A stretch of DNA of 64,000 nt from Candidatus Thorarchaeota archaeon (GTDB lineage: Archaea > Asgardarchaeota > Thorarchaeia > Thorarchaeales > Thorarchaeaceae). Positions 20,594-38,880 of this stretch are shown here, piece by piece. Made by a program: the position numbers and the translations under genes. The stretch covers positions 64,001 through 128,000 of the forward strand of contig CAVSBO010000005.1 in assembly GCA_963726195.1 (NCBI GenBank). The letters run 5' to 3'. Position 1 is the first letter of the stretch, and the number at the start of each line of letters is the position of its first letter. A model generated the notes under the pieces. That model made no database searches and had not been told where the DNA came from. It was given only the letters and a program-made list of their open reading frames with translations.

Positions 20594-21823
20594 CTATTGC
20601 GGATAGGCTTCCTTCAGGCCATCCCAAGAGAATCCTAGAGCCTCGGCAACTAGCACAGCCAAATCCTTCGACTTCTTGTTCGACCCGGCTTGAGGAAGTT
20701 GGTCCTGCATGAAGTCGACGCACGAGGGACAAGCAGAGATCACCTGCTGGGCATTGGTCTGCTCTATGTCCTTTAGTTTGAGCTGGTTTATCTTCAGGGC
20801 GAACTCGTTGTCGACAGCTCGGAGAACACCCCCTGAGCCGCAGCAGAAGCAGTTGTTCTTGTTGTGAGGGAGCTCCTCGAACGTAACTCCCGGCAGATTC
20901 TCTATGACCTTCCTTGGTTCCTCAAAGAACCCCGAGTTCCGCCCAGCATCACACCCGTCATGGAATGTGATCGAGGCTTCCGTGTGACGATTGAGGTTGT
21001 TCAGTTTGCCACTATCGAACAGGTCGGCCAGATATTTCGCTCCGTACTCGATTTGAAATGGATGCTCGATGTCAAGAAGCTCATGATACTCGCGTGCCCA
21101 TATCTTGTAACAGCCGGGGCAATTGGTGACTATTCGTTCTACTCCGAGAGCTTTGTACTTCTCGATGTTGTGAGCCGCGAGCTTTCGGGCTGTATCGAAA
21201 TCTCCGGTCATGAGCATCGGAGCCCCGCAGCACCACTCATCTTCCCCGAGAATTGTATAGTCTTGCTGGACCTTATCCATGATCAGAGTCGTGGCTATTG
21301 TAGCTTGGATTGGCACCGCCTTGTACGATGATGCGCATCCAAAGAAGAATGCAGTCTTTGCCTTCCGACCAATCTTGCTACGCAGCAGCTCTTCATCAGG
21401 ATGCCAGTACGACCACCCGTCGATTCGATCCGACTGAGATTGACCCTGAATGTTGTTGGTCTTCAACAGAGTGTCTCTTGCAGCCTCTAGGTTCTTTGGC
21501 CACATGCCCCTCTTCCTGAACTCTGCGCGCATCAGCTGATAGAGCTTGACGAATGGGATGTCGACCTGGCAGACTTCCTCACATCCGCCGCACAATGTGC
21601 ATCCGAATATGGCATCCCGAAGACCTTCGAGTCCCTCGGAGGGCTCAATGCGACCTTGAATCAGCGCCCGTGCAAGCAGCATCTTGCCTTTGCCGGAGTA
21701 GCTATCAAGTCGTTTGACCTTGTATGTGGGGCAAGATCCGTGACCGACTTGACAGAAGCTGCACTGAGCACACGTGAATGGCATGTTCTGGAGGCTGTAT
21801 TTTTCGAGCAGAGGGAAACGCAT
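20594..21823 (-). CDS. CCG-domain (Fe-S)-binding oxidoreductase subunit, HdrD/GlcF/GlpC-like
   Basis: CAQCSFC...CP, CTLCGGCEEVC, FFGC, EWCCG, CPGC, HDGC, CCGSGG, CPSC; true start likely ATG 21823. Confidence 0.9.
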   Translation of the reverse strand: MRFPLLEKYSLQNMPFTCAQCSFCQVGHGSCPTYKVKRLDSYSGKGKMLLARALIQGRIEPSEGLEGLRDAIFGCTLCGGCEEVCQVDIPFVKLYQLMRAEFRKRGMWPKNLEAARDTLLKTNNIQGQSQSDRIDGWSYWHPDEELLRSKIGRKAKTAFFFGCASSYKAVPIQATIATTLIMDKVQQDYTILGEDEWCCGAPMLMTGDFDTARKLAAHNIEKYKALGVERIVTNCPGCYKIWAREYHELLDIEHPFQIEYGAKYLADLFDSGKLNNLNRHTEASITFHDGCDAGRNSGFFEEPRKVIENLPGVTFEELPHNKNNCFCCGSGGVLRAVDNEFALKINQLKLKDIEQTNAQQVISACPSCVDFMQDQLPQAGSNKKSKDLAVLVAEALGFSWDGLKEAYPQ

Positions 21824-21931
21824 TCTTCTGAAACCCTGCGAGGTTCCAGAAGATGAATCTAAAAGGTCTTCGGCCTGGCTCAGACCGTGCGATGAGAACT
21901 TTAAAATGCTAAGAGTTGGGATTGAGGTACA

Positions 21932-22390
21932 TTGGATAAGGAGAGTGATCTCATCAGCAAGCAAGCCGATGCAAGAATGAAGAGGTATCTGCAGAAGATA
22001 AAGCACGGGCAAAGCAGATGCACGTCCTTGCACGAATGGCTTGGAAAGAAGGGACTAGAGAAGGACCTGATGGCAACGCTGGCCATCGACAAGGCTTTCC
22101 AAGAGGTTGTCGAGGTCATGATGGACCTCCTTGCAATGATGCTGAAGGACAAGTCAATCCCGCCCCTTGACGATTACACGAACATAACCGAAGTCATAGA
22201 AGTGGGACTCCTGCCCAAAGAGGCTCAACCGATTCTGCGAGAGGCGAATGGTCTAAGAAACAAGCTGATTCATGTGTACAATGACACTGATGGTGCTATT
22301 GCTCTAAGGAACATGCGCGCCCTGCTCCCACAACTGCAATCCTATCTTGGGGTGATTGAGGCATGGGTGAAACAGACGAAGCCAAAATGA
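21932..22390 (+). CDS. hepT: HEPN (DUF86/HepT-like) ribonuclease toxin
   Basis: RX4HXY motif (RNKLIHVY); overlaps a downstream MNT gene. Confidence 0.85.
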   Translation: MDKESDLISKQADARMKRYLQKIKHGQSRCTSLHEWLGKKGLEKDLMATLAIDKAFQEVVEVMMDLLAMMLKDKSIPPLDDYTNITEVIEVGLLPKEAQPILREANGLRNKLIHVYNDTDGAIALRNMRALLPQLQSYLGVIEAWVKQTKPK

Positions 22391-22743
22391 GGTCTGACTT
22401 GCAATCCATAATGGGGATACCAGAAGTCGAAGCCGTACTCCTGTTCGGTTCGCATGTTCGGGGAGACGCGACGCAGAGAAGTGATGTGGACATCTGCGTG
22501 GTTGCCCCGACGGCCAACACGACCGATGCGAAGGCTTCGCTTGTGCTCACTGTGTGGAGCAAAGTGAATGCGGCCGCATATGATATTTGGCTCTTCGAGG
22601 AACTGCCACTATATATGCAGATTGAGGTAATCGAGAACCATCATATCCTTCACTGTCGCGATGTTCCATCGCTATACGAGTACTTCTACTGGTTCAGGAA
22701 GCGCTGGAGTCAGCAGGAGCAGCGCCAGGCGTTGACTGCATGA
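22387..22743 (+). CDS. mntA: Minimal nucleotidyltransferase antitoxin (MntA-like)
   Basis: GSX10DXD motif (GSHVRGDATQRSDVD); ATGA overlap with hepT. Confidence 0.85.
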   Translation: MRSDLQSIMGIPEVEAVLLFGSHVRGDATQRSDVDICVVAPTANTTDAKASLVLTVWSKVNAAAYDIWLFEELPLYMQIEVIENHHILHCRDVPSLYEYFYWFRKRWSQQEQRQALTA

Positions 22744-23041
22744 ATCAGGTTGTCGCAACCAAGGGTGCGGTATTCTCGGTGTTTCATATAATACTGAGGG
22801 CTGATGCCACCGTTCGTTGTTAGTTGGACAGAGTTGGACACAGGAGTCTTTGCCCGCCCAGAAACGGCACTCGGCTCCAACTCCTTGAGGTCAAGTTCGT
22901 GTCTTTTCAACCTCGGTGATCACATTCCTCATTGAGGCTCAGATGCTATGACCAAACGGGCGCCGAGGCAAGAAGAAAGCTTCAAGAACTTAGGGACGAG
23001 TAGAGAACAGCTAGGAAACACCGAGTGCTGGTTCATCACGT

Positions 23042-24031
23042 ACCACCCTGAGAAGTGCACCATCTCGTTCCGTCAGGAAAAGGCTGGTGTACACCATACT
23101 AGAGAAGACCGCAGAGTTCCGGTGGGGAGCTTACTAGGGAGGGAACGGGGCGATTTACTCGAACATCAACGGCTCTGGAGGGAGCAGCCCGATAGCAAGA
23201 GTGGACAACTGCTCACGCGTCATCAAGTACGTGGTGATCTACGGGGCGAGGTACGCTTCGTACAACTTGGTCGAGATGAGGATACTAGACATGAACGTGG
23301 TCGCGGACTTGACGAGGCATAATCCGACTGCAGCCGATCCAACGGTGTACGAAGGGACCAAACTTGGCGTCGGCCACACCGCAAGTCCGCCTGTTGATCA
23401 GTGGGCTTCGCAGGTCTCCAGCTGGTGGACCGGCTGGTGGCCTGAACTGCACACTAGGGTGCAACTGTCGGACTCTAGAGGTCCGGCATTCGTGTTTCAG
23501 GCGAAAACAGACCTGCTGGGTTCAAAGACACTCGAAGCGCTGGCTGTGACTGATGACAGAGGCAACACCATTCAGGCATTGCAAAACTCGAACATGGCCA
23601 ACACAGGTGCGCAGCTAATCATCGACAACCTCGTAGTGCTGTTGGGTTTGTACGTAGTTGAGGGATTGTGGGCAGCAGTCTGCTTTGCGTCCAACATAAA
23701 CCCAGCTTGGATTCCTGTTGCGGTTGCTGAGGGGGTAGTCTGGTTGGTATTGTATACGTACTCAATTACGATACTGGCAGCATCTCTGAAGAATGGCGGC
23801 TATGACCCTTGGTTCAGATTCTGGGTCCTATTGTTTACCGGTTTGATATTCTGCTTCGGAGCATTCTGTCTCATCTTCGGTCCCCCCATACTTGGTGGCA
23901 TCTTGGCACATAAGGACGTCACAGACAACCTATTGGCAGTTTTGCCTGGCGCTTGGATTCTGTTTGTGTTCAAATGCATGGCATGTATTGCTCTCTTCGC
24001 TGCTGCGATCGCAACGTTGTTCGGCGCATAA
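23042..24031 (+). pseudogene. Cassette A: 5'-truncated fragment of a larger protein with a hydrophobic C-terminus (toxin-CT-like)
   Basis: Frame of ORF 23201-24031 extends upstream past one TAG at 23135; homologous to 27579-28616. Confidence 0.55.
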
Positions 24032-24048
24032 AGCAAAAGAGGAGCTTG

Positions 24049-24477
24049 ATGCACGGAAGGTGGAAGGAAATGCAGAATATGATGAGTCCTCTGGTGCTTT
24101 CGTTTCTGATACTGATTGCTTCTTGGTCTGTCTCAGCTATCGTGAGCTACTTTTCTGTCTATGAGGTAATTGCCAGGAGAAAGAAGCCGTGGAATGAAAT
24201 GACGCCTCTTGACCAATCACGGATTCTTTGGTTTTCCGGCCTAGGCGGCAGTGCAGGGGTTGTGTCGTTCATTCTCCTATTCGCTCTCGCCGCATCGGAA
24301 CGTGCTTTTCCGCAGATAGACCTCGTAATCCTGTTCGTCTGGGTCTTGGTGGAGATACCACTGACTGCTTGGGGCGGAGTCTTGGCGACGCACCGAAAGG
24401 TTTCTCAGAACCCGCTGAAAGAGCACGAACTAACCTTGAAGCCTCAAGACCGTCCGACCGTGAACGAACAGCTGTAG
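24049..24477 (+). CDS. Small 3-TM membrane protein (candidate immunity protein)
   Basis: GAGGAG just upstream; three hydrophobic segments; directly follows cassette A. Confidence 0.6.
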   Translation: MHGRWKEMQNMMSPLVLSFLILIASWSVSAIVSYFSVYEVIARRKKPWNEMTPLDQSRILWFSGLGGSAGVVSFILLFALAASERAFPQIDLVILFVWVLVEIPLTAWGGVLATHRKVSQNPLKEHELTLKPQDRPTVNEQL

Positions 24478-24798
24478 CTGCATAGCTTCACCGTCTGGGT
24501 CAGCTAGTAGGTACAGTCGTGTCCAGACTTTGGGGTTGCGGCATGCCTTATCTTCACAGATTTCATGAGGGAGACGGACAACAAGTGGTATACTACAAAG
24601 CCTTGTACCGAGGTGCACAGGTTCGCTGTCATGCTCAGAACCTTGCCTGGGCATCACGGAGGTGTGAGGTCTTATGGGCGAAATACTGAGTATCTTCTTT
24701 GCTCTGATTGCCTCATTTCTGGGATTAGCACGAGTACTGCTTTCCTTGTAGAGGACAGGATTTGGTTTGCAAGGCTCGCGAAGGCCACCTGAAGACAT

Positions 24799-25089
24799 GT
24801 GACTCACAAACACTTGAACTCTCAGGCACAATGGGTCTATGCGAACCCGCATGGAGCGAGATTCCTACAGTCTGTGATGCTAACTGGCGCTATGCTACTC
24901 CCAATCATCGGTATGACCGCCGGAACGTGGACAGTCTTCGCCGCAACCATTCTCTGGTTGCCAGCCTGCGAAGTAATGGAGGGCAGTCTATTCTACACCA
25001 TATGGATTGTATACAAGGCAACTACGAAACGTTCTCCTATGCCACTTGCGGTTGCAGGTTCGACAAGTGAGAGTGCTTGTGAGTCATGA
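24799..25089 (+). pseudogene. Possible third, shorter hydrophobic C-terminal cassette fragment
   Basis: NPHGARFLQSVMLTG...IWIVYK resembles DPWFRFWVLLFTG...LFVFK and DAWSRFFLIVFDG...LLYK. Confidence 0.3.
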
Positions 25090-25309
25090 ACTGGATACGA
25101 CACTAGGAGAAAGCCAGGAGTACGTGCAAACGGGTATAAGGAATCGTTCGAGTAAGTATGATTCGGAGGAGCGTTCGTGACGGTCATTGGCTTTCTGGTA
25201 CTCAGCCGGTCTCTATGGGTCGTCGTAGCACTAGTCGACTTCGCTCAGTCTCTTGAACGGGGTCCTGCGGTTGTAGCGAGAACTCAAGTCTTCGGAGGGA
25301 TGAGAATCG

Positions 25310-25627
25310 ATGAAAAAGGAAGTCGATGAGCCTCTGAATGATGATCCAGAGAGTGCAGAAGAGGAATCCCAAGTTGACTGGAGCAGCAATATCAAGAAAT
25401 CGCTCCTAGTTGGGCTATTGGCGGAGATACCAATCGCGGCTCTCGTGCTTCCTTTTGTAGTCAGGTCTCCTCACCTTTCGAATTTTGAAGCTGTTACTGT
25501 CGTTGTCATGCTGCTTACGTTCGGGTGCAGTTTCTTCATGCTGACCTTTTGCATGTTAACTTGCAGGACCGTGTTCCAAATACGTGAGAAGATTAGTGCA
25601 GAGTCTGATTCACAACGCGTGAGTTAG
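25310..25627 (+). CDS. Small 2-TM membrane protein
   Basis: Acidic N-terminus, two TM segments, GGAGG upstream. Confidence 0.6.
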   Translation: MKKEVDEPLNDDPESAEEESQVDWSSNIKKSLLVGLLAEIPIAALVLPFVVRSPHLSNFEAVTVVVMLLTFGCSFFMLTFCMLTCRTVFQIREKISAESDSQRVS

Positions 25628-25657
25628 ACTATCCTAACTCGTGAAGTGGAGGACGAG

Positions 25658-26248
25658 ATGAACAAGACCACCGACTTCAGAGGATACATCGCACGAATAT
25701 ATCTGGGCCGTGAAGAATCGAAGGGGGATTTTGTCGTCTTTAGGTCACTTCGACTCACGTCAAACAACGTCGCCTTGAAGGTGCCTGAGGATATCGTCAG
25801 TGTACTAGCCAAGCCGCAACTGCTAGTGCCACACATATTGACAAGCATCCGACTTGACGAACATGTGAGAGGTAGCCAACACACCAGCATAATGCTGTTC
25901 ATTGTGGCGGTTCCTCTCACGATTTCCTCGGTAGTCCTTTTGCCCATTCTTGTTGGTCGCGATTTCCTTGATGCCTTCTTCGAGTTCGGGGGCTGGGTTT
26001 TCATGGTTTGGCTCATTGTCATGATTGTCTGGGCTGCTGCGCAAGCCCTGAAGTATATGCGAGAAGAGAGGGGTATCGACCAACGAGCAATGGCTGAGTA
26101 CCCAGAGTTTCCGACCGCCTTGCATATGCTTGCCGATTCAGGGTTGAGCCCTGCACGTGGGCACCCGGCGTTTAGGACAAGACTTCAGCGCCTTGGATGC
26201 AATGAACCTGAACCGGCAGAGACGGGATTCAACTCAAGAATCGACTGA
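25658..26248 (+). CDS. Membrane protein, degenerate M48 (HtpX-like) peptidase fold
   Basis: EERGIDQRA...AL.ML...GHPAFRTRLQRL mirrors ExxAD...HP...RI; HEXXH replaced by PHILTS. Confidence 0.5.
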   Translation: MNKTTDFRGYIARIYLGREESKGDFVVFRSLRLTSNNVALKVPEDIVSVLAKPQLLVPHILTSIRLDEHVRGSQHTSIMLFIVAVPLTISSVVLLPILVGRDFLDAFFEFGGWVFMVWLIVMIVWAAAQALKYMREERGIDQRAMAEYPEFPTALHMLADSGLSPARGHPAFRTRLQRLGCNEPEPAETGFNSRID

Positions 26249-26261
26249 TGGAGATTGGCTT

Positions 26262-26843
26262 ATGATTGGCTCGTTCACGTTCACTTTCTCTCTGGCGCTT
26301 TTCGTGCTCGTATGTCTGTGTGACAGTGCAGCGAAGCGGACCAGACGAGGGTGGGTTCATAGACTGGGCAATCTACCACGCAAGTCCAGAGGGACTCATT
26401 TCGTCGTGTATGGAGGTCTGCTCACAGTCACTTGGTTCAGCTTCTATGGATTTGCAGTAGAACAAAGCGGTAATGTTGCGTTTCTCCAGTACTACGTTGA
26501 ACAAACCCCCCTTGTCTGGTGGTTGTTCGTCTGGACTGTGTCCATGACCGGTCTCCTCGAGTGGAATATATTCAGATTCCCACTCTTCGTGCATGAAGAT
26601 GACCGATTGATAAGGAGAAATCGGTATCTGGAAGGAATCGTTGTCGAGGCGCCATCGTCAACCGAAGGAATTGAGTCTGCGATTGATATTGTGAGGAAGC
26701 ACAGGAAAGAGTGGAAACCAGTGACAGTTGAGTCATTCTTGACGTATCTCGGTCGACGTAACGACGAAGTAGGCTCTGAGGCCCGAGGGAAGCTTGACAG
26801 TATCAGCAAACAAACCAAAAAAAAGAAACAGAAATCATCATGA
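26262..26843 (+). CDS. 3-TM membrane protein with C-terminal 'RND..G..AR.K' domain
   Basis: Three hydrophobic segments; C-terminal domain shared with 26932-27258. Confidence 0.6.
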   Translation: MIGSFTFTFSLALFVLVCLCDSAAKRTRRGWVHRLGNLPRKSRGTHFVVYGGLLTVTWFSFYGFAVEQSGNVAFLQYYVEQTPLVWWLFVWTVSMTGLLEWNIFRFPLFVHEDDRLIRRNRYLEGIVVEAPSSTEGIESAIDIVRKHRKEWKPVTVESFLTYLGRRNDEVGSEARGKLDSISKQTKKKKQKSS

Positions 26844-26931
26844 GTACTAGGCGGCCTTTGGGCTTCATTGGTTAAGCAATTATCGGCCTGTTCTCTGTGT
26901 CGCTCCAACATGCCGCGGGCCACACTAGGCT

Positions 26932-27258
26932 CTAGGGCATAGGGCGTAGACCAAGTTGGACCATCTTGTTCCGTGCCGCTGTACCAAACCCATCATTGCG
27001 CTCTGACATCTCTATGAGAAAGTCCACTAAATCCCCGGGAGGACAGCCCCATTTGGGATTCTGAATATAGTTTACGATGTATTCGATGCCTTCTTCGGGG
27101 TCAAGATTCTTGATTGAATCAAAATAGGCTTGATTAGAGCCTGTCATGATCACTGAACGGTAGGCTGACCTAAGAACATACAAGAGATACAAGGCAAGCG
27201 GAATCCCGATGCAAGAAAGAACAATCACAACAAGGCCGTAGTCAGCCACTTCTCCCAT
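26932..27258 (-). CDS. 1-TM membrane protein with C-terminal 'RND..G..AR.K' domain
   Basis: N-terminal TM; EGIE...FL...RNDGFGTAARNK. Confidence 0.65.
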   Translation of the reverse strand: MGEVADYGLVVIVLSCIGIPLALYLLYVLRSAYRSVIMTGSNQAYFDSIKNLDPEEGIEYIVNYIQNPKWGCPPGDLVDFLIEMSERNDGFGTAARNKMVQLGLRPMP

Positions 27259-27388
27259 CCTCTGTCCGGTTCTTGCGCAGCCTCATCGAGTTATCCGGCC
27301 GTCCCGATATAAATGTGTACACGATACGAACGCACATCTAGTCGAGACTGCTCTGAAGAGCTGGTAGGGGCCGGATGGCGTTCTAGAT

Positions 27389-27578
27389 GAGTTGGCTCAG
27401 GCGATAGGTATTCTTAGGTGCCTCGACGGCGGTATTCACTGGCTTGAAGAAGCTCCGATTAGAGAATGGAGACAGTTCTGATGGCGTTGAAAAGCGAGCA
27501 AGTGTCAAAACTCGCCAAGGTTTTCGGAGACCGACTCATCACTGCCAAGCATGAGATGATTATACATTCTCAAGATGT
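27389..27578 (+). repeat. Diverged direct repeat copy 1: upstream region and first ~38 codons of the FAD oxidoreductase gene
   Basis: Ungapped match to 29161-29350; 26 mismatches in 190 nt by manual count (~86% identity). Confidence 0.95.
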
Positions 27579-28616
27579 GAGGGTGCTTGCTATCAGGAAC
27601 CTGCTGACATAACTACGTCGTTTGTCAAGACAGTCTCAGTATGGTATGACCGATGCTCCAACTCAATCAAGTCAGCTTTCGACGGCTCCATCACAACGCT
27701 CACGACGGCCTACAACGCATCCAGAATCATAAGCTATATCGTCATTAGCACGTCGAGGTACGCTGACAAACCGCTGCTCGATATGAAAGTGCATGAAATC
27801 GACGTTGCAGTCAATCTCAGGGCTACACTGCCGTCAATACCAGAACCTCCTAAGAGTGAAGAGCCTCTTCCAGCTACATGTGATGGCACCAAGGAATGCC
27901 ACGCTAGCTACACTCAACAATCGGTGGGTATCCCTAATCCATTTTCCATGGTAGGTGATGTGCAATGCTGGTGGGCAGGACCATGGCCTGTGTTTCATTC
28001 AAGGATTGACAAGACCACTCCCGAAGGATTCACATTCAAATACCAAGCGGCACGTGACCTGCTTTGCAATACTTGGATTGAAGAAGCCAGCTTGGTGTCG
28101 AATGATCCGAACAATCCAATTCAAGGTAGTGCCTACCTACAGGCCCTCGTCGACACTCTTGTTGCTGAATGAATCTTCGAACAGACAATCAGAGCAATAG
28201 AGCAGGGAATCGGCATCGCGATCAATATCATTTGCGCTGCCACTGAGCTCGTGCCGGCTCTGTGGGAGGTCGCTGCGGCAGCGATAGTGGCGTATACGGC
28301 CGCGTTCGTATCGAGTACGATGGTTAGTGTCAACGATATCTGCAAACTCGCGCGTGATGCATGGTCAAGGTTTTTCCTGATTGTCTTTGACGGATTTGCA
28401 TTCCTCGCGTCAATCGCGATTCTGGATATCATCGCGCCTGGAGTGGTATCATCGATTCGTGTTGCTCTTGCTGGAGAAGGAACACTATTGGGTCTCCTGC
28501 TGTATGAGGCCGCCGATATGTCACTCTTCTTCCTGTTGTACAAAGTCGTCCTTCTACTTTGGATCTTCTATGTTGCATATGTGGTGTTTCTTATGACACT
28601 ATCAGGCAAGTTATAG
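27579..28616 (+). pseudogene. Cassette B: 5'-truncated homolog of cassette A with one internal TGA (28170-28172)
   Basis: ORFs 27783-28172 and 28251-28616 share a frame, which is open back to the repeat junction at 27579. Confidence 0.6.
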
Positions 28617-28744
28617 GCGCGAGAACAGGAGCGAGAAATGTCAATGTTGCGATTGGATTCGTCACCAATACTCAGAGACGTCATGATTAGTACCAGTACC
28701 TTTTCATGGTGCGCGATGGGCACTATGGGTTGGAGGAATCGAGC

Positions 28745-29122
28745 GTGCAAATAACGAACTCGGAATTACTGATGGTCGATCTCATTTGCTGGCTCTGCGT
28801 GGGAGTTACGGCGGTGCTGTCCGGAAAACTGACACTCAGAAAGTGGGCTCCGTCCGTCAACAGCGAGCCTTATGCTCTGGGGTTTGCAGTCTTGGTCACC
28901 GTAGGAGCTTCATTGGAAGTCGCCAATCTCGGCTGGTTGATGGCGACACTGTCGCTCCCGTACTCTGTTCTAACGGGGTTTCTGCCATTCGTCGTGTACT
29001 GGACAGTTGTAGTTGTGGTCATCCTCGCCGTCTTCTACAAGGTGTTCCTTCCGAGAATGAACGAAATGCGGTCTGCAATGAAGAATCTGCAATCAAGCAC
29101 TGAAAAGGCTTACAAATGGTGA
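28745..29122 (+). CDS. Small 3-TM membrane protein (candidate immunity protein)
   Basis: GGAGGA before GTG 28745; hydrophobic segments; follows cassette B. Confidence 0.6.
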   Translation: MQITNSELLMVDLICWLCVGVTAVLSGKLTLRKWAPSVNSEPYALGFAVLVTVGASLEVANLGWLMATLSLPYSVLTGFLPFVVYWTVVVVVILAVFYKVFLPRMNEMRSAMKNLQSSTEKAYKW

Positions 29123-29160
29123 TCAATCATTGACTGGGAGATTTGCTCAGACTTGAAGCC

Positions 29161-29350
29161 GAGATGGTTCAGTCGATAGGTATTTGTAGGTGCCTCGATC
29201 GCGGTACTCATTGACTTGGAGCAGCTCCTGTTAGAGAATGGAGGCGGTTCTGATGACATTGAAGAGCGAGCAAGTGTCCAAACTCGCCAATGTTTTCGGA
29301 GACCGGCTCGTTACTGCCAAGCATGAGATGATTATCCATTCTCAGGATGT
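29161..29350 (+). repeat. Diverged direct repeat copy 2 (5' end of the intact FAD oxidoreductase gene)
   Basis: Matches 27389-27578. Confidence 0.95.
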
Positions 29351-31192
29351 AGGTAGTCTGCCAAAGCAAGTCGGCTGGCTCATGAACACCACGCCGGACG
29401 CGATCGCTCAGCCTCAATCCCCCGAGGACATTCAGTTTCTCTATGAGTTCGCTCGGTCTCAGAAGGTCCCGCTTGTTCCTAGAGGTGCAGGGACCTCGGG
29501 ATACGGAGGTGCGATACCCCGCAAGGGCGGCATCGTTGTCGACATGCGCCGAATGGATAGAGTTGTGAACGTGGACAAGGAGAACCTGACGGTCACCGTA
29601 GAGCCGGGCATATCGTGGGTCAACTTGCAGTTTGAGCTGAATCGTCAGGGCTTGGATTTGCGATGCTATCCGTCCTCGGGTATATCGGCCACCGTGGGCG
29701 GCTGGGTCGCTCAAGGCGGCGACGGTATTGGCTCTCTGAAATATGGTAAGATTAACAACAACGTCACTGAGCTTGAGGTTGTTCTGCCTGACGGGCGGAT
29801 TGTTCGAACTAAGGATACAGATCTCTTCTGCGACACAGAGGGGATACTCGGAATCATCAGCAAGGTCACTTTGAAAGTCAAAGAGCTTACTCCAATTCAT
29901 TCAGTAGTCGCTAGCTTTCCTGAGAACTACCTGATGACTTTCGCAATTGAGAGAATCATATCCGACGGCCCATTGCCTTTCACGATGCGATTCGAGGAGA
30001 GCAAGTATACTGATTTGAAGAAGAAGGTGTGGGAATCCGAGAATCCTTTCCCGTTCCCTGTACATCACTGTGTCTTACTTGTTGCCTACGAAGGAGCCGA
30101 AGACGAGATTCAGGAAGGTCTCGAAGTCGTGAGGCGAGTAGCCGAAGAAATGAAGGGCACAGTCTACGATGACTGGGTCGCAGAGCACGAATGGGAAGAC
30201 CGCTTCTACCCGATGAAGATCAAGAAGATGGGCCCAACCCTTGTTGTCGGGCAGGCTTTTGCCCCAATCGAGAGCCTCGAAGGCATACTAGATGATTTTC
30301 AGTTCGAGCAGGCATCTGCAAAGGCCGGTATTGATGGTTACGTGACCTCAAAATCAGGGGTCACGATCATGGGATATTTCCTTGAGGATGAACGTCGTCA
30401 CTTCTTCATGCTATCTTGGTCCCAGAGCTTCGTGATATTCAAGATCGCTCAACGTCATGGCGGGCATCCCCACTCGACAGGGATCTGGTTCGCCAACTAT
30501 GCGCCAGTGTACTTTGGTACCCGCCGCTTGGCAAGAATTCGAGCGGCCAAGCTGGAGTCGACCCTCACGAGATATCTAACCCGGGCAAGGTGTTTGCGTA
30601 CTGGCTTCCTCTCATACTAAGGGTTGGCAAGTACTTCATGTGGCTCGGTTTCGACCTTTTCAGAAACGGGTTCGGCAGGATTGCACCCATTGTTCTGAGA
30701 TGGCTGCAGAATCTGCCGCCTATCAAGTGGCTCCTTAGATGGGGTCGGGCATACAGTCCTTGGCCGGTACAGTACGGACTTGGCTGCTGCATGGTTGAAG
30801 GTGCAGCTGCGGTCGCGTCTCGCTGGGATCTCGAGCGATTCGGGATGCTGCCTCTGTTTGGTCCTAGGCAGTGCGATGTGCTCTGGGTTTCCGGTTCGCT
30901 GACTAAGAAGATGGTACCACGTCTTCGCCGCATATACGAACAAATGCCTGATCCGAAGTTCGTCATATCATTTGGTCAATGTGCTGCAAGTGGCGGAATG
31001 TTCTGGGATGGATACTCATTGGTGTCGCCGCCTGACAAGGTGGTTCCGGTAGATGTCTACATACCAGGTTGTCCCCCCAAGCCAGCGGACTTCGTTCGGG
31101 CTCACCTGATTCTCGAAAACAAGATTCGTGCAGGAACGACCTATTGGCAGCGGAGATACGAGAGTCAGGACGCTATGGGTTTCGTAAAGTGA
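29238..31192 (+). CDS. nuoB: GlcD/Dld-type FAD-binding oxidoreductase fused to NuoB (frameshift near 30550)
   Basis: PRGAGTSGYGGAIP, YPSS..SATVGGW and TEGILGII in the first frame. The terminal DPHEISNPGK motif is in the second frame, which continues without a stop into GLGCCMVE, PRQCD, QMPDPKFVISFGQCAASGG, VDVYIPGCPP. Confidence 0.85.
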
Positions 31193-31202: not shown

Positions 31203-31670
31203 ATGGCGACCGTTAGGGAAGACAGCGACTTCTATTGTTTGCTTTGGCTCGGAATTGCCTTGTTGAGTGGGTACTACTTCAACATTGGATACTTGGGGCT
31301 CACAGTACCCCTGTATCTCAGCACGATGCAGCCATACCTGCTCCAGCTGGTAGGTTGCCCGCTGATCCTAGTCATGGTCTCTGTTTCTTACCTGAGGCCA
31401 TCCCGGGGTAGGTACAAACCCCTAGTATTCGCTCTGGCGATTGTCGTGTGCGTGTACTTCTACATCGTTGTCAATTCATTGCCCCCGGTCGCAGGAATCA
31501 CTTCCGACGCACTGTTTCTGTTATCATGGGGAATTGGCAGCGCTCTTCTGGTGGCATCAGGTTTTTCGATAATGCCCGGTCGCGCAGAAACAACTAGCCC
31601 CGGTATTCTGGATGTTGGGTCTCTCAAGTACGGCATTCAGACAGAAGAGGAACACAACGAAACAGCCTAG
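31203..31670 (+). CDS. 4-TM hypothetical membrane protein
   Basis: Follows nuoB by 10 nt with GAGGT upstream; hydrophobic. Confidence 0.7.
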   Translation: MATVREDSDFYCLLWLGIALLSGYYFNIGYLGLTVPLYLSTMQPYLLQLVGCPLILVMVSVSYLRPSRGRYKPLVFALAIVVCVYFYIVVNSLPPVAGITSDALFLLSWGIGSALLVASGFSIMPGRAETTSPGILDVGSLKYGIQTEEEHNETA

Positions 31671-31714: not shown

Positions 31715-32089
31715 TCATTTGGCTTTTGAAAGCTCACCGAGCCAGCTCAATGACGCGAGCGTGAGAAGAATGCCGAATGCAGCCCATAGAAATAGGATCA
31801 GGCCGCTGTATGGTTGCGGGAATAATACGAGGTCCAAGTACCCTTCGATTCCACCAAACATAGCGGACAAGAGAGTCAACCCTATCCGTACTGCCCTCTT
31901 CCTTGAAAATGATATTGCTAGTGTTGATGCCGCGAAGAGAGCGTAGTCTGCGAGCAGAAGACTATGGAGAAGGTCCAAGATTTCTGATTCTGCAACCCAC
32001 CAGACATACAACGCTATCAGAGCAAGGCCCACTGCGAAACCAACATAGTACGCCAAGATACTCCTCGATTTGGGCACCAATTCTATCAC
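31715..32089 (-). CDS. 4-TM hypothetical membrane protein
   Basis: Four hydrophobic segments. Confidence 0.65.
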   Translation of the reverse strand: MIELVPKSRSILAYYVGFAVGLALIALYVWWVAESEILDLLHSLLLADYALFAASTLAISFSRKRAVRIGLTLLSAMFGGIEGYLDLVLFPQPYSGLILFLWAAFGILLTLASLSWLGELSKAK

Positions 32090-32723: not shown

Positions 32724-33167
32724 ATGAGGCTCTTCATTGACTTCAACTACGTCTTCGTTTGGGCCCTTCTTGCGATAGCCCTAGTCGCCATCATGCTCGC
32801 GGCATCGTGGATACTTCGCCCCCACGTTCTACAGAACTCAGACAAGACTTCCACATACGAATGCGGCGAAGAGCCGATAGGTCCCGCAAGAATCTCCTAT
32901 CCCTATAGTTACTTTCTGTACACGATTCTCTTTGTTATTGTAGATGTCATGGGCGCGTTCCTGTGGCTGCTCTCTGTGTCTCAGTTCAGAACTTCAGTAG
33001 CTGCTGCTTGGCAGATGCTCTTCTTTGTGCTGCTGATTTCAGCTGGAATTGGTTTTGCACTGCGGATGTTCCCGCAAACGATTCTCAGCGGGAAAGAAAC
33101 CCTCAAGCTCTACAGAGAGGGAAAGGCAAGACGTGAGTCTCAGAAGACGGAGGCGGCCCAGGAATGA
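32724..33167 (+). CDS. nuoA: Complex I-like subunit A
   Basis: KTSTYECGEEP, LFVIVDV; 3 TM. Confidence 0.93.
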   Translation: MRLFIDFNYVFVWALLAIALVAIMLAASWILRPHVLQNSDKTSTYECGEEPIGPARISYPYSYFLYTILFVIVDVMGAFLWLLSVSQFRTSVAAAWQMLFFVLLISAGIGFALRMFPQTILSGKETLKLYREGKARRESQKTEAAQE

Positions 33168-33820
33168 TGATGCAGGGTGTTGAGGTCTTGCTTGAGCAGG
33201 CAGAGTTCGTCGCGATAGCTTTCATCGTTCTTCTTCTTGCCTATCTCGCGCTTGAACACAAGGAAATCACCTATGCTGTATTCTTCTTTGGATTCATGGC
33301 AGCAGCGGTCTCAGGTTTCTTTCTCCTGCTGGATGCTCCTTTCTTGGTAGGATTACAGATAGCGGTTTACACGGGAGGCATAAGTGCACTGATCATATTC
33401 GGTGTTCTTCTCCTTCCTCGGGCTCAGGACTCCTCACTTGAAATCTTTCAAACTCCGAGAAGGAGACGGTTGGGACTCCTTCTTTCAGGCACGGTCATGT
33501 TGCTCTCGGCGGTTCTTGCATTCCTCTATCCATGGTACGAGCTACCACCGGTCAGCCCTCCGGAACTTCCTCAGAGCCTCCAGGGTTTGGCCGCTTGGCT
33601 CTGGAGCAGTCATGGGATTTACGTTGAGATGATTGCCTTGATCATGCTGACGGCCCTTGTCGGGTCAGTTGCTATTCTGAAGATGATGAAGGCAGAAGAA
33701 CTGCATCCCTTGATTGCCGAATCTCATGCAGAGCCCGCGGGGAAGAAAGATGCCGCCGGTTCTTCTTCTGTGTCTCAAACTGAGACCGGAGAAGAAGAGA
33801 AGGAGGTTGGCCCCAAGTGA
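33164..33820 (+). CDS. nuoJ: Complex I-like subunit J
   Basis: LDAPFLVGLQIAVYTGGI; 5 TM. Confidence 0.9.
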   Translation: MMMQGVEVLLEQAEFVAIAFIVLLLAYLALEHKEITYAVFFFGFMAAAVSGFFLLLDAPFLVGLQIAVYTGGISALIIFGVLLLPRAQDSSLEIFQTPRRRRLGLLLSGTVMLLSAVLAFLYPWYELPPVSPPELPQSLQGLAAWLWSSHGIYVEMIALIMLTALVGSVAILKMMKAEELHPLIAESHAEPAGKKDAAGSSSVSQTETGEEEKEVGPK

Positions 33821-34137
33821 TTCCCCTGAGCTGGTTCCTAGTCGTGGCATTCATGCTCATCGGCCTTGGGGCCTATGGGATGGTTACCAAGAGAAACTTG
33901 ATTCGAATAATCATAGGCGCTGAGATAATGGCCAATGGAGTGAACATCGCTCTGGTCGCGTTCTCAGTTTATACCAACGTATTCACATTCACTGGCCAAG
34001 CTCTTGTCATCATCGTAATATCAGTGACAGCGGCTCATACTGCGCTAGCCATGGCGCTCATGCTGATGTACAACGCTCGATACTCAACGGTGGACCTCGG
34101 AGAGCCTGTTGTTTCGGAGGCACGTAAGCATGAGTGA
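33817..34137 (+). CDS. nuoK: Complex I-like subunit K
   Basis: KRNLIRIIIGAEIMANG, GQAL, TAAH. Confidence 0.92.
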   Translation: MIPLSWFLVVAFMLIGLGAYGMVTKRNLIRIIIGAEIMANGVNIALVAFSVYTNVFTFTGQALVIIVISVTAAHTALAMALMLMYNARYSTVDLGEPVVSEARKHE

Positions 34138-34648
34138 GTCAGCTGTCTCTCCAGCAGCAGTTGCTCAGGCGGTGAGAAGCAGATGTCCCGATGTCACACA
34201 GGAGAGCATGCAGGGCAACCGTCTAGAGCTGGCAGTTCCACCTTCGAGAATCCGAGATGTCGTGAGCCTGCTTAACGAATTGATTTCTGACGCACTTCCC
34301 GAGTCCGTCTTTGGTATCGATCTTCAGAATGACCGATACGAACTGATCTACGTCTTCTGGTCCCACATCAATCGAATCCTGTGCCAGCTTCGTGTGAGTC
34401 TGGAAGGCGCCGCACCCGAAGTCGACTCTGTTTGTGACATATTCCCGGGGTTGGAGTGGCACGAACGCGAGACACATGAGATGTTCGGCATAGGTTTCAA
34501 GGGCCATCCTGACCTGAGATTGCTTTTGCTGCCGGAGGAACTGAGCGGCAAGTACCCGCTTCGAAAGAGCTTCAAGACTGACAGAAGCCGATTGAGCGAA
34601 ACTGGATTGCCCGAAGCCAGACCCGGTTCGAAGGAGGCTGAAGCATAG
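34130..34648 (+). CDS. nuoC: Complex I-like subunit C
   Basis: WHERETHEMFGIGFKGHPDLR...YPLRK. Confidence 0.93.
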   Translation: MSESAVSPAAVAQAVRSRCPDVTQESMQGNRLELAVPPSRIRDVVSLLNELISDALPESVFGIDLQNDRYELIYVFWSHINRILCQLRVSLEGAAPEVDSVCDIFPGLEWHERETHEMFGIGFKGHPDLRLLLLPEELSGKYPLRKSFKTDRSRLSETGLPEARPGSKEAEA

Positions 34649-35785
34649 TGAGCCCTGAAATCGTTGATGAAGCAGCGCAGATCTGGTTTGGACCCCAGCA
34701 CGTTTCTGCTCACGGATGGGCCACGAAGCTCACTATCGTGGGCGACTACATAGTCGAATGCGATCCGAATGCGGGTTACTTCCATCGTTCTGCGGAGAAA
34801 TGCCTCGAGTTCAGGAACTTCCAGCAGGGCGCAATGATCATGGAACGGCTCTGTATGCTTGAGGCTTTTCTTGCAGAGTATCCTTACGTCAAGGCAGTTG
34901 AACAAATCGCCCAGCTCGAAGTGCCAGAGCGAGCTAAGGTGATGAGAACAATAATGATGGAGGCGAGCAGGATTCACAGCCTCCAATTCTGGTGGGGTCA
35001 ATTCGGCGCCGAGCTCGGTCTCTTTGCAATGACGCTCTGGCCTTGGGTCGATCGTGAGTATTTTCTCAATGCATTTGAAGAACTGACTGGTTCTCGACAT
35101 GCAGTCTCTTACAACACACCTGGCGGCGTCAAGTACGATTTCACCGAGAAGTCCGTCAAGACGCTGGAACAGGCTCTCGACAGACTTGAGGATCGGCTGC
35201 CGAAGTTCCATGACATGATTCTGAGGAGCCCCACTTTCAAGTTACGAACCAAGAAGGTTGGACTATTTGACGCAGCACAGGGTCTCAAGTGGGGGCTGAG
35301 CGGGCCGAATATCAAGGCCTGTGGCATCCCGATGGATTTGCGAAAAGACGACCCCGACCCCAATCTCGCATACGGGATGTGCGACTGGGAAGTACCAGTG
35401 ACGACCAATGAGGATCATCCTGGTCAATGCGACGCGTACGATAGGATGCATCAGCGGTTCAAGGAAATCGAGAACCTCCATTGGCATTATCAGACAACTC
35501 CTGCCGCAGGTGCCTGAAGGTCCTATCGTGGACCCCAAAGCCCGCGCGAAGGCAAACAGGCTGCCCGAGGGAGAGGCATACGGTCGTGTCGAGGGCACAA
35601 GGGGAGTGACAACACTCTTTCTCAAGACTACTGACAAGGCTCAGACTCCTTACAGGGCAAAGATACGCGGCCCATGTTTCGCCTCTTACTACTCGTTGAA
35701 GCATTTGGTTCCTGGATCGACGTTCGCTGACTTCGTCGTGATATTCGGCAGCCTCGACCCATACCCAGGGTGGTGGGATCGCTGA
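34648..35785 (+). CDS. nuoD: Complex I-like subunit D (frameshift near 35475)
   Basis: GPQHVSAHG, GYFHRSAEK, EASRIHS, GLSGP..ACG...DLRKD / VEGTRG, PYRAKIRGP, SLDPYPGWWDR. Confidence 0.9.
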
Positions 35786-36927
35786 TGGGGGTCGGCACGA
35801 TTCTTCAGATAGACATCGTGGGCTGGCTAGGCGGACTGCCCTCTTGGATCTACGGTGTAATCAGCTGGCTGTTCAACCTTGTCTGGGCCCTCTTCAACTG
35901 GATATGGAACATTGTTGTATGGTTCTGGGCACTGGCTATTGACCAGATATGGTGGCTGTTCAAGGCCATAGTGTTTCCGGGGTTAGTCTTCATACTGTTC
36001 TCCATCATCTTCTCCGTGTGGTTCACGAGAAAGGTATGGGGCCGCGTGCAAGCAAGACGGGGTCCGTTTCACCTCGGTAAGTATGGGGGCCTCCAGGTAT
36101 TCGCAGATGCGATAAAGCTGATTGGAAAAGAAATCGTGATACCGGACAAGGCTAAGCGATGGATGTACCGCATACTTCCATCTCTGCTACTTGTCGCAGT
36201 TCTCATTCCATTTGCGTTCATACCGTGGAGCAACGAGTGGTATATCGCGGACCTTTCAGTGAGTCTAATACTGACCTTTGCATTTCTTACAGTTGTTCCA
36301 GTTGTATCACTGCTCTCGGGCTGGATTAGCGGATCGAAGTATACACTCATTGGTGGCTTCAGGGCGGCTAACAATCAATTCGCAGCCGAGATACCCTTGA
36401 TCATATCGTCTGTCGGACCTGCAATGCTTGCCGGTTCGCTGAGCATCATGGGGATTTCGCAAGCACAGTCAGGTCTTTGGTTCTTCATTCTGCTTCCCGT
36501 GAATTGCGTGACGTTCTTGGTGAGTGCTACTGTGATAACTGCGCTCGTGCCATTCGATGCGCCAGTTGCAGACTCAGAGATTCTTTTCGGTTGGCGCACT
36601 GAGTTCAGCGGCATTTACTTCACTATGACCTATTTCGCAGAGTTCGCAAAGCAGTTGCTGTTCTCCGGTCTGATAGTAGCTCTGTTTTTCGGAGGCTCCT
36701 ACGGCTTCGCATTCATACCTCCTGTCCTGAACTTCATCTTCAAGTTCTTGGTCGTGCTGTTCCTCATGATCTTGGTAACATCATCATTCTACAGGATGCG
36801 ACAGGACCAAGTGACGCATTTCTGCTGGAAGTATCTTCTCCCGCTGTCTTTGCTCAATGTTGTCATTGCGATGTTTGCTATTGTCTATGTCCCGGGCTTA
36901 GCACAGCTGCTGGGAATAGGAGGTTGA
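35785..36927 (+). CDS. nuoH: Complex I-like subunit H
   Basis: QARRGP, GGLQVFADAIKLIGKE, SKYTLIGGFRA, PFDAP..DSE...G...EFSG. Confidence 0.93.
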   Translation: MGVGTILQIDIVGWLGGLPSWIYGVISWLFNLVWALFNWIWNIVVWFWALAIDQIWWLFKAIVFPGLVFILFSIIFSVWFTRKVWGRVQARRGPFHLGKYGGLQVFADAIKLIGKEIVIPDKAKRWMYRILPSLLLVAVLIPFAFIPWSNEWYIADLSVSLILTFAFLTVVPVVSLLSGWISGSKYTLIGGFRAANNQFAAEIPLIISSVGPAMLAGSLSIMGISQAQSGLWFFILLPVNCVTFLVSATVITALVPFDAPVADSEILFGWRTEFSGIYFTMTYFAEFAKQLLFSGLIVALFFGGSYGFAFIPPVLNFIFKFLVVLFLMILVTSSFYRMRQDQVTHFCWKYLLPLSLLNVVIAMFAIVYVPGLAQLLGIGG

Positions 36928-36934
36928 TGGAAGA

Positions 36935-37366
36935 ATGGGATTCTTTGGCACACTGGGCGAGATATTCAGGGTTCTTCGCCATACATTTCGTCAGACAATG
37001 TCCCGACCTTTCACCTATTTCTATCCCTTTGAAGACCGATACTATCCAGACAGAACGAGGGGCAGACACATTCACATAAGAAAGAACTGCACTGCATGTG
37101 CACAGTGTGTGAAAGCTTGTCCTACTATTGCGATAAGGATTGACAAACAGGATCACATGTATGAGAAGGATGCCGCTCTGTACTTCGACTATACGCGCTG
37201 CATTTTCTGCGGCCTTTGTGTTCAGGCCTGTAAGTTCAACGCACTATTCCATACCAAAATCGTCGATCTCAGTGAAGAAACCAGAGAGGACCTGCAATAC
37301 GGCCCTGACAGGATGGGCACACTCGAAAGGAAACCCCTCGAGTGGCGTGGGAGGAAATTCAGGTAA
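36935..37366 (+). CDS. nuoI: Complex I-like subunit I (2x 4Fe-4S)
   Basis: RGRH, CTACAQCVKACP, RCIFCGLCVQAC. Confidence 0.93.
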   Translation: MGFFGTLGEIFRVLRHTFRQTMSRPFTYFYPFEDRYYPDRTRGRHIHIRKNCTACAQCVKACPTIAIRIDKQDHMYEKDAALYFDYTRCIFCGLCVQACKFNALFHTKIVDLSEETREDLQYGPDRMGTLERKPLEWRGRKFR

Positions 37367-38880
37367 TGCAGACGCTACAACTCCCGTTCATGGCGATTTC
37401 GCTGGCCGTGTTGTTCTTTGGTGCACTGGGCATATACTTACTGAAGGGCAGGCTGAATGCCGGGGCCGGCAAAGCAGCAGCGGGTATTTCGTTTGCTTCG
37501 CTCTTGCTCATGATTCCACCATTCTACAGGGTTGTCGCAGAAGGTGGGCCCGCCATGGAGTCCACCGTATGGTCTCAAGTCTTCGGCAGGGTAGGTCTCT
37601 ACCTTGATGGCATCGCATTCCCAATAACATTCGCAGTCGTGGTTCTTGGATTTCTTTCAGTAGTCTATGCAATCGGGTACACCCAAGAGATATCCAACAG
37701 GGCATCGTTCTTTGCAAACCAGCTGTTCTTCATCATGGGAATGCAATGGGTAACCCTGGCTACGAATCTGATTGAGTTCTTCATAGCATGGGAAATCATG
37801 CTTGTTCCCACCTACTTCCTGATTCTATTCTGGGGATTACCCGAGACCAGAAAGCGCACTGCGTTGAAGTTCTGGTTGTACACACAGTCGGGCGCACTAT
37901 GCATCTTCGTCGGATTCGGTCTGCTGTACTACTTTGTTGGCTCGTTTGAGCTCTCGGTCATCCAATCGCTTCTTCCCACATTCGTGGGTTCAGTCGACGC
38001 GCTGAAACTCATCTTTGTCTTGCTGGCGGCAGGTTTCCTCGTGAAGATGGCGGTGTTTCCTATTCATTGGTGGTTGCCTCCTGTTCACGCCGAAGCCCCA
38101 ACTCCAATCTCTGTGCTCTTGTCGGGCGCAATGATTGAGACCGGTGCTTATGCACTAGTCAGGTTCGGAACGATCACACTGGGGATTGCCGCTTCATCTC
38201 TTTCTGTGTGGATTGCTGCGATTGGAGTAGTAACTATGTTCTATGGGGGACTCATGGCGCTCGCCCAATCAGACATCAAGAGGTTGCTTGCATACTCCTC
38301 TGTGTCCCAGATGGGCTATGTCCTCTTTGCGCTCGGCACTTTCACGACTTACGGAGTGTCAGGAGGTTTGTTTCATCTCATTAATCACGCATTCTCCAAG
38401 GGTCTCCTATTCATGACAGCAGGAGCCGTCATTCACGAGACCAAAATCAGAGACATTGCTCAGCTGGGCGGATTGTCAAACAAGATGCCTGTGACTGCCT
38501 TTGCTGCTGCTGTTGGGGCGCTTAGTATCGCAGGGAGCCCTCCACTGTCCGGCTTTGCCAGCGAATGGATGATGTTTCTAGGTGGCTTTCAGGCTGCGCT
38601 GCCCGGTGCAGGCGGGCTGGCCCGGCCTGAGTTCTTTGTTCTGGCATTGCTCGGAGTATCAAGCACGATAATCAGTGCAGGATACATGCTGAGGTTCCTC
38701 TGGAAGGTTTTCTTGGGCCCGACACCAGAAAGTCTCGAGCACGTGAAGGAAGGACCTAGATCAATGACCACTCCGATGGTCGTGTTGTCCATTCTGATAG
38801 TCCTGTTTGGAATATTCCCGGGGCTCGCTCTGTCAGTGATATCCCCGGCAGTAAGTGCCATAGCCAACATAATCCCCTGA
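37366..38880 (+). CDS. Additional antiporter-like subunit (NuoM/MrpD type)
   Basis: FFIAWEIMLVP, HWWLPPVHAEAPTPISVLLSG, DIKRLLAYSSVSQMGY, NHAFSKG. Confidence 0.88.
   Translation: MQTLQLPFMAISLAVLFFGALGIYLLKGRLNAGAGKAAAGISFASLLLMIPPFYRVVAEGGPAMESTVWSQVFGRVGLYLDGIAFPITFAVVVLGFLSVVYAIGYTQEISNRASFFANQLFFIMGMQWVTLATNLIEFFIAWEIMLVPTYFLILFWGLPETRKRTALKFWLYTQSGALCIFVGFGLLYYFVGSFELSVIQSLLPTFVGSVDALKLIFVLLAAGFLVKMAVFPIHWWLPPVHAEAPTPISVLLSGAMIETGAYALVRFGTITLGIAASSLSVWIAAIGVVTMFYGGLMALAQSDIKRLLAYSSVSQMGYVLFALGTFTTYGVSGGLFHLINHAFSKGLLFMTAGAVIHETKIRDIAQLGGLSNKMPVTAFAAAVGALSIAGSPPLSGFASEWMMFLGGFQAALPGAGGLARPEFFVLALLGVSSTIISAGYMLRFLWKVFLGPTPESLEHVKEGPRSMTTPMVVLSILIVLFGIFPGLALSVISPAVSAIANIIP

Follow-up and report, generated by a model that had tools for sequence, protein, structure and literature searches.

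The complex I family is modular, and for understanding how respiration evolved it is of central importance how new modules for electron input or output became attached to the conserved NuoB/NuoD/NuoH core. No group known is more closely related to the eukaryotic host than the Asgard archaea. Their complex I is the subject of a preprint, which deals with NuoBCDI in the absence of NuoEFG in Heimdallarchaeia and does not cover the protein described here, while a paper on Sif- and Jordarchaeia noted Dld genes collocated with HdrD and a complex I lacking NuoEFG, and reported no fusion. In the Methanomassiliicoccales, a headless Fpo-like pump together with HdrD has been proposed to act as a ferredoxin:heterodisulfide oxidoreductase. 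We analysed a stretch of 64,000 nucleotides (nt) from a Candidatus Thorarchaeota archaeon (assembly GCA_963726195.1, contig CAVSBO010000005.1, positions 64,001 to 128,000; below called the window, with positions counted from its first letter), which carries a Thorarchaeia-specific gene for a protein of about 646 amino acids (aa) that joins a VAO/GlcD-fold flavoprotein, an amphipathic tail and NuoB in one chain. No description of a flavoprotein-NuoB fusion was found in the literature on NuoB, complex I and Hdr of Thorarchaeota and other Asgard archaea, and public records name these proteins plain 'NuoB' or 'hypothetical', which makes the fusion relevant to annotation as well. The gene represents a natural case of a second redox enzyme covalently joined to the subunit holding cluster N2, across a large Asgard clade.

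In the window the gene is spread over two overlapping open reading frames (ORFs) in different frames, at 29238–30620 (frame 0, 460 aa) and 30416–31192 (frame 2, 258 aa). Profile searches matched the frame-0 ORF to PF01565 (FAD_binding_4, 144 bits) and, above the cut-off, to PF02913 (FAD-oxidase_C), and the frame-2 ORF to PF01058 (Oxidored_q6/NuoB, 90.3 bits versus a cut-off of 27). The motif DPHEISNPGK is located in frame 2 at 30560–30589, and this frame continues without a stop through a Trp/Arg/Leu-rich linker into NuoB, where the N2 ligand motifs follow as GLGCC (30776–30790), GQCAASGG (30974–30997) and PGCPP (31064–31078). All four Cys ligands of N2 (tandem CC, QCxxxGG and GCPP) are thus present in the window, and they are invariant in 44 fusion proteins. 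The protein P0023 passes the TIGR01957 model with 170 bits versus a cut-off of 142.7. When aligned with a 646-aa relative (P0002), frame 0 covered residues 1–435 and frame 2 residues 426–645, giving a gapless join with 88% identity in both halves. The original prediction, made from the sequence of the window, had placed the NPGK end of the FAD oxidase in the same stop-free frame as a complete NuoB, with an amphipathic linker of about 50 aa between them, and held that the fusion stands whichever way the indel is mended. Both statements were confirmed, with the linker measuring about 55 aa, as frame 2 alone carries NPGK, linker and NuoB, and the relatives are uninterrupted.

The linker, taken as the approximately 55 residues between NPGK and WGRAYSPWP, has a mean Kyte-Doolittle hydropathy of at most 1.02 in windows of 18 residues and a helical moment of 1.1–1.8, by which it is amphipathic and not transmembrane. 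Three helices were predicted for it in an AlphaFold2 (AF2) model of the fusion protein, built on a 44-row alignment; the mean pLDDT of this model was 63.9, with approximately 30 in the NuoB half, so that the fold of the FAD domain is usable and the FAD-to-N2 geometry is not.

The change of frame is due to one base missing between 30557 and 30558 (AAGCTGGAG-TCGAC), as shown by aligning the DNA with that of three congeneric genomes, and the site lies 4 nt downstream of an AGCT. Other genes of the window are interrupted in a similar manner: nuoD has one extra base near 35471 (GAGA[A]CCTCC, 35465–35475) relative to the corresponding loci L005 and L006, which splits the gene and has no AGCT beside it, the MenA-like gene discussed below is split by a frameshift, and a geranylgeranyl-reductase (GGR)-family gene is apparently split into ORFs at 16979–17803 and 17748–18224. 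The missing base most likely represents a long-read consensus or assembly error, since the congeners are intact, conservation is equal on both sides of the shift (88%), all N2 ligands are kept and the neighbouring genes are also split.

A search for longer proteins identified 46 full-length clusters of about 646 aa with PF01565 and PF01058 in one protein, this co-occurrence being the check that had been proposed for the fusion, and nearly all clusters with a named source were labelled Candidatus Thorarchaeota. In a six-frame survey of the class, uninterrupted matches to residues 1–645 were detected in at least 52 of 87 species genomes, belonging to genera g1–g12, and all three congeners of the window genome carry the fusion without interruption. 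The FAD-binding motifs are invariant among the fusion proteins, and the FAD domain as a whole is 74–88% identical across genera. A stop after NPGK followed by a separate nuoB start, the arrangement that had been named as evidence against a fusion, was seen in no fusion-bearing genome. The fusion is real biology.

An unfused orthologue (P0122) is present in genus g14. This protein has 498 aa, is 57–58% identical to the fusion proteins and ends within the tail (..PPLKWIRNDM), so that the same amphipathic tail is kept, and genes for HdrD-like and MenA-like proteins adjoin its gene. The g14 genomes (90–94% complete) hold only distant NuoB, NuoD and NuoH proteins, with identities of 41% and 39% for NuoB and of 33% at best for NuoD, and no orthologous nuo genes were found in the g14 genomes carrying the unfused flavoprotein. 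The flavoenzyme therefore does not need N2, and the pair of flavoprotein and HdrD-like protein presumably works without this pump in g14.

Apart from the fused gene, no NuoB-type gene was found in the 2.9-Mb genome (88.9% complete). Its three further PF01058 genes encode proteins of the sulfhydrogenase-delta and VhuG/MvhG types, i.e. small subunits of group-3 hydrogenases, and adjoin genes for hydrogenase large subunits or for MvhD/HdrA. Genes for NuoEFG are absent from the operon, and no match to PF01512 (Complex1_51K, NuoF) was found anywhere in this 88.9% complete genome. This bears out the earlier claim that the fusion supplies the sole nuoB of a nuoAJKCDHI-M'LMN operon lacking nuoEFG/fpoF. 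The operon starts 1.5 kb downstream of the fusion gene in the window and is also downstream in L005, L006 and L007, and the gene order matches in a circular Thorarchaeota chromosome and two metagenome contigs. A gene for an FrhB/FdhB-like protein (PF04432; G000 contig C3, 62021–62465), split over two frames and unlinked to the nuo operon, is the only candidate for an F420- or flavin-type input subunit in the genome.

The NuoD subunit of this pump departs from both of its better known relatives. The quinone-site His38 (Thermus thermophilus numbering) is kept in the motif GPQHVSAHG, and Met stands in place of Tyr87 in the window as well as in L005 and L006 (RLCMLE versus RMDYLH in T. thermophilus Nqo4). 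One of the four NiFe cysteines is retained, in the N-terminal motif, and the C-terminal motif reads DPYPGWWDR. The best match among solved proteins was MbsL of the sulfane-reducing MBS complex (6u8y_L, E-value 8e-58). Judged by these residues, NuoD fits neither a hydrogenase nor a quinone reductase of the textbook kind.

The nearest solved proteins to the FAD domain by sequence are LctD and mouse LDHD, and a Foldseek search with the AF2 model of P0002 gave mouse LDHD (8jde, TM-score normalised to target 0.80), AGPS (alkyl-DHAP synthase) and LctD as fold neighbours. In a HMMER alignment to mouse LDHD, combined with the family alignment, the LDHD metal ligands H398, H405 and E442 align to Tyr363, Met373 and Pro406. 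The sequence HGGHPHSTGIW is invariant in the fusion proteins, and the wider subfamily has GGxP[YH][SG]xG[LI]W where D-2-hydroxyacid dehydrogenases have EHGxG. Three fusion proteins scored 137–149 bits with the TIGR00387 glcD equivalog model, versus a cut-off of 567.9. The FAD domain is thus assigned by its alignments to the fold, and not to the D-2-hydroxyacid dehydrogenase family as defined, and since the metal triad is absent the substrate is probably not a classical D-2-hydroxyacid. The lactate/pyruvate-type couple (about -190 mV) that had been suggested as one option found no support, with the His-His-Glu triad replaced and the glcD score at about a quarter of the cut-off.

Other members of the subfamily carry membrane-directed or redox modules at their ends. 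In a Thorarchaeal paralogue of the flavoprotein, three hydrophobic helices form the end of the chain; short tails of basic, amphipathic character are found in other relatives, a further relative carries an NrfD quinone-interacting anchor as a fusion, and relatives at 34–38% identity are fused to Fer4_8 and CCG domains in a single chain. From these termini, the flavoprotein subfamily is predicted to be consistently membrane-bound.

The second component, which the original prediction did not include, is an intact gene for a protein resembling HdrD, GlcF and TfrB, which is adjacent and divergent to the flavoprotein gene in L005, L006, L007, L013, L014 and L015, and co-directional in L018. The protein from the window is 72% identical to its L005 orthologue, and has one match to PF13183 and two to PF02754. 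All 18 cluster cysteines are invariant across 57 HdrD-like sequences (C18/21/24/31, C75/78/81/85, C163/198/199/235/238 and C291/327/328/365/368). It passes no NCBIfam cut-off among the TfrB, LdhH, GlpC, GlcF, HdrB and DsrK models, the best being TfrB with 160.6 bits versus 385. Prediction of a complex of the FAD domain (residues 1–450) with the HdrD-like protein gave ipSAE values of 0.86, 0.85 and 0.89 (median 0.86), while the best of three controls reached 0.00; in calibration, 58 of 80 solved complexes attained the ipSAE mark, as did 2 of 110 mismatched pairs. The runs shared at least 94% of contacts, with a partner pLDDT of at least 90, and the interface lies between residues 79–81 and 142–147 of the FAD domain and residues 13–28 and 84–88 of the partner, which hold ligands of the first cluster. 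We tie the FAD domain to the HdrD-like protein because of the gene adjacency across genera, the single-chain fusions in relatives and this complex prediction, and the model predicts that the immediate redox partner of the flavin is the first [4Fe-4S] domain of the HdrD-like protein, and not N2. Upstream of the fusion gene in L005 (CP070761.1, 1–9808), there are at least three consecutive pairs of FAD_binding_4 and Fer4_8/CCG proteins, plus PNPOx-like genes; the flavoprotein/HdrD-like pair therefore belongs to a much-expanded paralogous family in these archaea.

A candidate for the synthesis of a membrane carrier is encoded by the UbiA-family gene next to the HdrD-like gene. For its orthologue in genome G075, the MenA models were the best match. 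We considered whether it might be an ordinary archaeal-lipid gene and rejected this, as the MenA models match best and a separate DGGGP-synthase-like UbiA gene is present elsewhere in the genome; the adjoining polyprenyl synthase and GGR genes may possibly be ordinary archaeal-lipid genes. MenA-like orthologues occur in genera g1–g15, and in 31 of the 36 genomes with both genes on one contig the MenA-like gene is at most 10 kb from the gene for the fusion protein or its unfused orthologue.

The reading towards which we lean, with a little more belief than doubt, is that the fusion moors an oxidoreductase pair working at the level of a membrane carrier to a ferredoxin-type pump, with both sharing a local carrier pool. 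The flavoprotein and the HdrD-like protein would form a two-protein, membrane-peripheral oxidoreductase able to work alone, as in the unfused g14, and the fusion would hold this pair at the foot of the peripheral arm of the pump. NuoI would exchange electrons with ferredoxin, NuoB and NuoD would handle the membrane carrier, and pump and oxidoreductase would draw on the same local pool of a prenylated carrier, for whose synthesis the MenA-type prenyltransferase encoded nearby would be responsible. Electrons could run either way: oxidation of the substrate might feed the carrier, with the pump reversed to make reduced ferredoxin, or the pump might oxidise ferredoxin, with the flavoprotein/HdrD-like pair as terminal reductase. 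Several points weigh against this shared-pool reading. No structure or model puts the FAD/HdrD module on the pump, the AF2 pLDDT in the NuoB half being as low as stated above, and ipSAE is a model confidence and not a measurement, so that it supports binding without showing it. The MenA-like gene is also found in genera without the fusion, and neither MqnA/D nor MenB nor MenD turned up in this genome (88.9% complete), in which no known route to a menaquinone head group was found; for this reason the carrier is hypothetical. With Tyr87 of NuoD lost and MbsL as its best match, the pump's own acceptor may not be a quinone. Finally, there is a small chance that the frameshift is real and a very recent mutation in this strain. 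The stronger form of that last point, that this organism has a true pseudogene here, or makes the protein by programmed -1/+2 frameshifting, and that no assembly error is involved, has in its favour that the frameshift is present in the deposited sequence and that the locus is rearranged by a 7.3-kb insertion. We give it little credence, as the downstream half is conserved like the upstream half with its ligands intact, three congeners lack a frameshift at the site, similar single-base indels affect nuoD and the MenA-like gene of the same window, and no slippery heptamer is evident at AAGCTGGAGTCG.

Alternatively, extending the original idea of a flavin site beside N2, the FAD domain and the HdrD-like protein could constitute a new module at the head or tail, with an iron-sulfur chain in direct electron exchange with N2 or the clusters of NuoI. 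Ion pumping would then be coupled, without a diffusible membrane carrier, to redox chemistry on a soluble substrate or on a disulfide at the CCG clusters, an arrangement resembling the Methanomassiliicoccales scheme, where HdrD without HdrE occurs beside an 11-subunit Fpo-like complex (PMC4153887). The covalent NuoB tether, conserved across 12 genera, is in line with this, as are the lack of NuoEFG or NuoF, the loss of the NuoD quinone-site Tyr, the lack of a recognised quinone head-group pathway in the genome and the two complete CCG motifs of the partner, like those of HdrB/HdrD. Yet the unfused g14 orthologue keeps its tail, HdrD-like partner and MenA-like neighbour without orthologous nuo genes, and the NrfD-anchored or transmembrane-tailed relatives, together with the linked MenA-type gene, point to a partner in the lipid phase. 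The N-terminus of NuoB is membrane-proximal, as known from complex I structures, and the tether places about 55 residues of interfacial helix on it, which also speaks against direct wiring. We hold such wiring to be doubtful, and rather unlikely the specific form in which fusion protein and HdrD-like partner, wired into the N2/NuoI chain, make up an oxidoreductase between ferredoxin and an organic substrate (or a disulfide) that is complete in itself and pumps ions with no quinone. If true, it would be a third way to cap a complex-I-type pump, beside NADH/F420 modules and bare ferredoxin docking. Improbable in our judgement is a FAD domain without redox input or output, which would serve in scaffolding or assembly, or would be an AGPS-like flavoenzyme, non-redox or lipid-modifying, anchored via NuoB. 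The D-2-hydroxyacid metal triad is indeed absent, alkyl-DHAP synthase, a membrane-associated flavoenzyme without net redox turnover, is among the top fold matches, and isoprenoid- or lipid-type genes (GGR, polyprenyl synthase and UbiA-family) are nearby. Against this, the FAD-binding motifs are invariant and the domain is strongly constrained between genera, its confidently predicted partner is an electron-transfer protein with its first cluster facing the flavin loops, and relatives from the same subfamily are fused to CCG or NrfD redox modules. The fusion is a testable object for the questions of what drives NuoEFG-less complex-I-like pumps, whether HdrD-type proteins dock on them and what membrane carrier is used by these archaea.

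The features of the locus are listed in Table 1. The distance between the HdrD-like gene and the fusion gene, which is about 200 bp in many relatives and about 220 bp in the congeners G023 and G024, is unusually large in the window. Part of it (21824–27388, about 5.5 kb), with a HepT/MNT nucleotidyltransferase pair and several ORFs without a family match, is by comparison a lineage-specific island in the divergent promoter region, because the gap in G023 and G024 is only about 220 bp. The remainder is bounded by a 190-nt direct repeat (27389–27578 and 29161–29350, 86% identical, 1772 nt apart), which copies the promoter, the 5′ untranslated region and approximately the first 38 codons of the fusion gene and leaves a truncated ORF of 48 aa at 27466–27612. 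The 1.77 kb between the repeats encodes two small membrane proteins without a Pfam match (28251–28616 and 28706–29122). The closest congener (G022) has one repeat copy and lacks the intervening 1.77 kb. Together, repeat and 1.77-kb segment have the appearance of an insertion which brought along, or recruited, a diverged copy of its target.

Two further membrane proteins are encoded between the fusion gene and nuoA, both with multiple helices, which are kept in the window, L005 and L006, and in G022 as judged by DNA similarity. Both may be additional subunits of the complex or factors in its assembly. The TAG at 31668 was considered as an interruption of the first of these genes and rejected, since the extension found by tblastn is an acidic low-complexity tail overlapping the gene on the opposite strand, and we treat it as the probable normal stop. 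An ORF of 116 aa without a family match follows at 32184–32534, and the gap before nuoA is about 430 nt longer than in L005. Just 3′ of nuoN, an ORF at 44754–45254 has a weak match to Arrestin_N (E-value 1e-6, 29 bits). Arrestin_N is a eukaryote-type domain, of a kind reported in Asgard archaea.

Table 1. Features of the fusion locus in the window, in order of position
Feature	Position	Strand	Remarks
GGR-family flavoprotein, apparently split over two frames	16979..18224	+	
Polyprenyl diphosphate synthase	18262..19344	-	
MenA-type UbiA prenyltransferase, split by a frameshift	19483..20593	+	Intact G075 orthologue: TIGR00751 106.8 versus cut-off 102.15
HdrD/GlcF/TfrB-like iron-sulfur protein, 407 aa, intact	20603..21823	-	Ferredoxin-type 4-Cys motif twice; CCG motif twice, complete; predicted to pair with the FAD domain
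Segment of about 7.3 kb separating the HdrD-like gene from the fusion gene	21824..29160	.	HepT/MNT toxin-antitoxin pair at 21932-22743, ORFs without assigned function, diverged 190-nt repeat of the 5′ end of the fusion gene at 27389-27578
FAD domain of the fusion gene	29238..30557	+	Frame 0; VAO/GlcD/LDHD fold, FAD_binding_4 and FAD-oxidase_C; Met at 29253 is the start in relatives
One-base deletion, frame 0 to frame 2	30557..30558	+	DNA alignment with three congeners
C-terminal motif of the FAD domain (..DPHEISNPGK)	30558..30589	+	Read in frame 2
Trp/Arg/Leu-rich amphipathic linker, about 55 aa	30590..30754	+	Tail of the flavoprotein at the membrane surface; continues into the N-terminal NuoB helix
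NuoB (N2 subunit) domain	30755..31192	+	Tandem CC, QCA..GG, GCPP; stop at 31190-31192
Conserved small membrane protein directly 3′ of the fusion gene	31203..31670	+	No Pfam match
Conserved small membrane protein	31715..32089	-	No Pfam match
nuoA, nuoJ, nuoK, nuoC	32724..34648	+	nuoA 32724-33167, nuoJ 33164-33820, nuoK 33817-34137, nuoC 34109-34648
nuoD	34648..35785	+	Split by a one-base insertion near 35471
nuoH, nuoI	35770..37366	+	nuoH 35770-36927, nuoI 36935-37366 (2x[4Fe-4S])
Four antiporter-like subunits	37342..44126	+	M' 37342-38880, nuoL 38882-41107, nuoM 41170-42627, nuoN 42561-44126

The C-terminal 150 residues of the fusion protein pass both TIGR01957 and NF005012, and with their N2 ligands (tandem CC, QCA..GG and GCPP), the WGRxxSPWP entry helix and the company of nuoA, J, K, C, D, H, I, L, M and N they resemble NuoB/Nqo6/PSST (NDUFS7)/NdhK. 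Unlike these proteins, the fusion has about 495 extra N-terminal residues, making up a complete flavoenzyme with its amphipathic tail, and the window genome has no free-standing nuoB. The flavoenzyme part shares its two-domain fold and a strong FAD_binding_4 score with GlcD, LDHD, LctD and YdiJ, and, as in GlcDEF and YdiJ, the flavoprotein is paired or fused with a Fer4_8 and CCG protein. It differs from these enzymes in having Tyr363, Met373 and HGGHPHSTGIW in place of the His-His-Glu site and EHGxG, and in the C-terminal membrane tails of its subfamily.

The pump resembles in layout the Fpo-like complex of the Methanomassiliicoccales, the proposed ferredoxin:heterodisulfide oxidoreductase. 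Both lack NuoEFG/FpoF, are presumed to be driven by ferredoxin and combine an 11-subunit-type complex with a soluble HdrD-type protein (2x[4Fe-4S] and 2xCCG) in the absence of HdrE. In the Thorarchaeia, however, the predicted binding partner of the HdrD-like protein is a flavoprotein covalently joined to NuoB, and there is an extra antiporter-like subunit. These organisms are not methanogens, and a heterodisulfide substrate is not indicated. The MBS and MBH complexes of the Thermococcales offer a further parallel, as NuoD shares R-[IL]-C-x-x-E with MbsL where complex I has R-[LM]-D-Y. NuoD nevertheless keeps one of the four NiFe cysteines, with Tyr at the position of the C-terminal Cys of MbsL, and the membrane arm of the Thorarchaeal complex is of the Nuo type (NuoA, J, K, L, M and N, plus M') and not of the Mrp type found in MBS and MBH.

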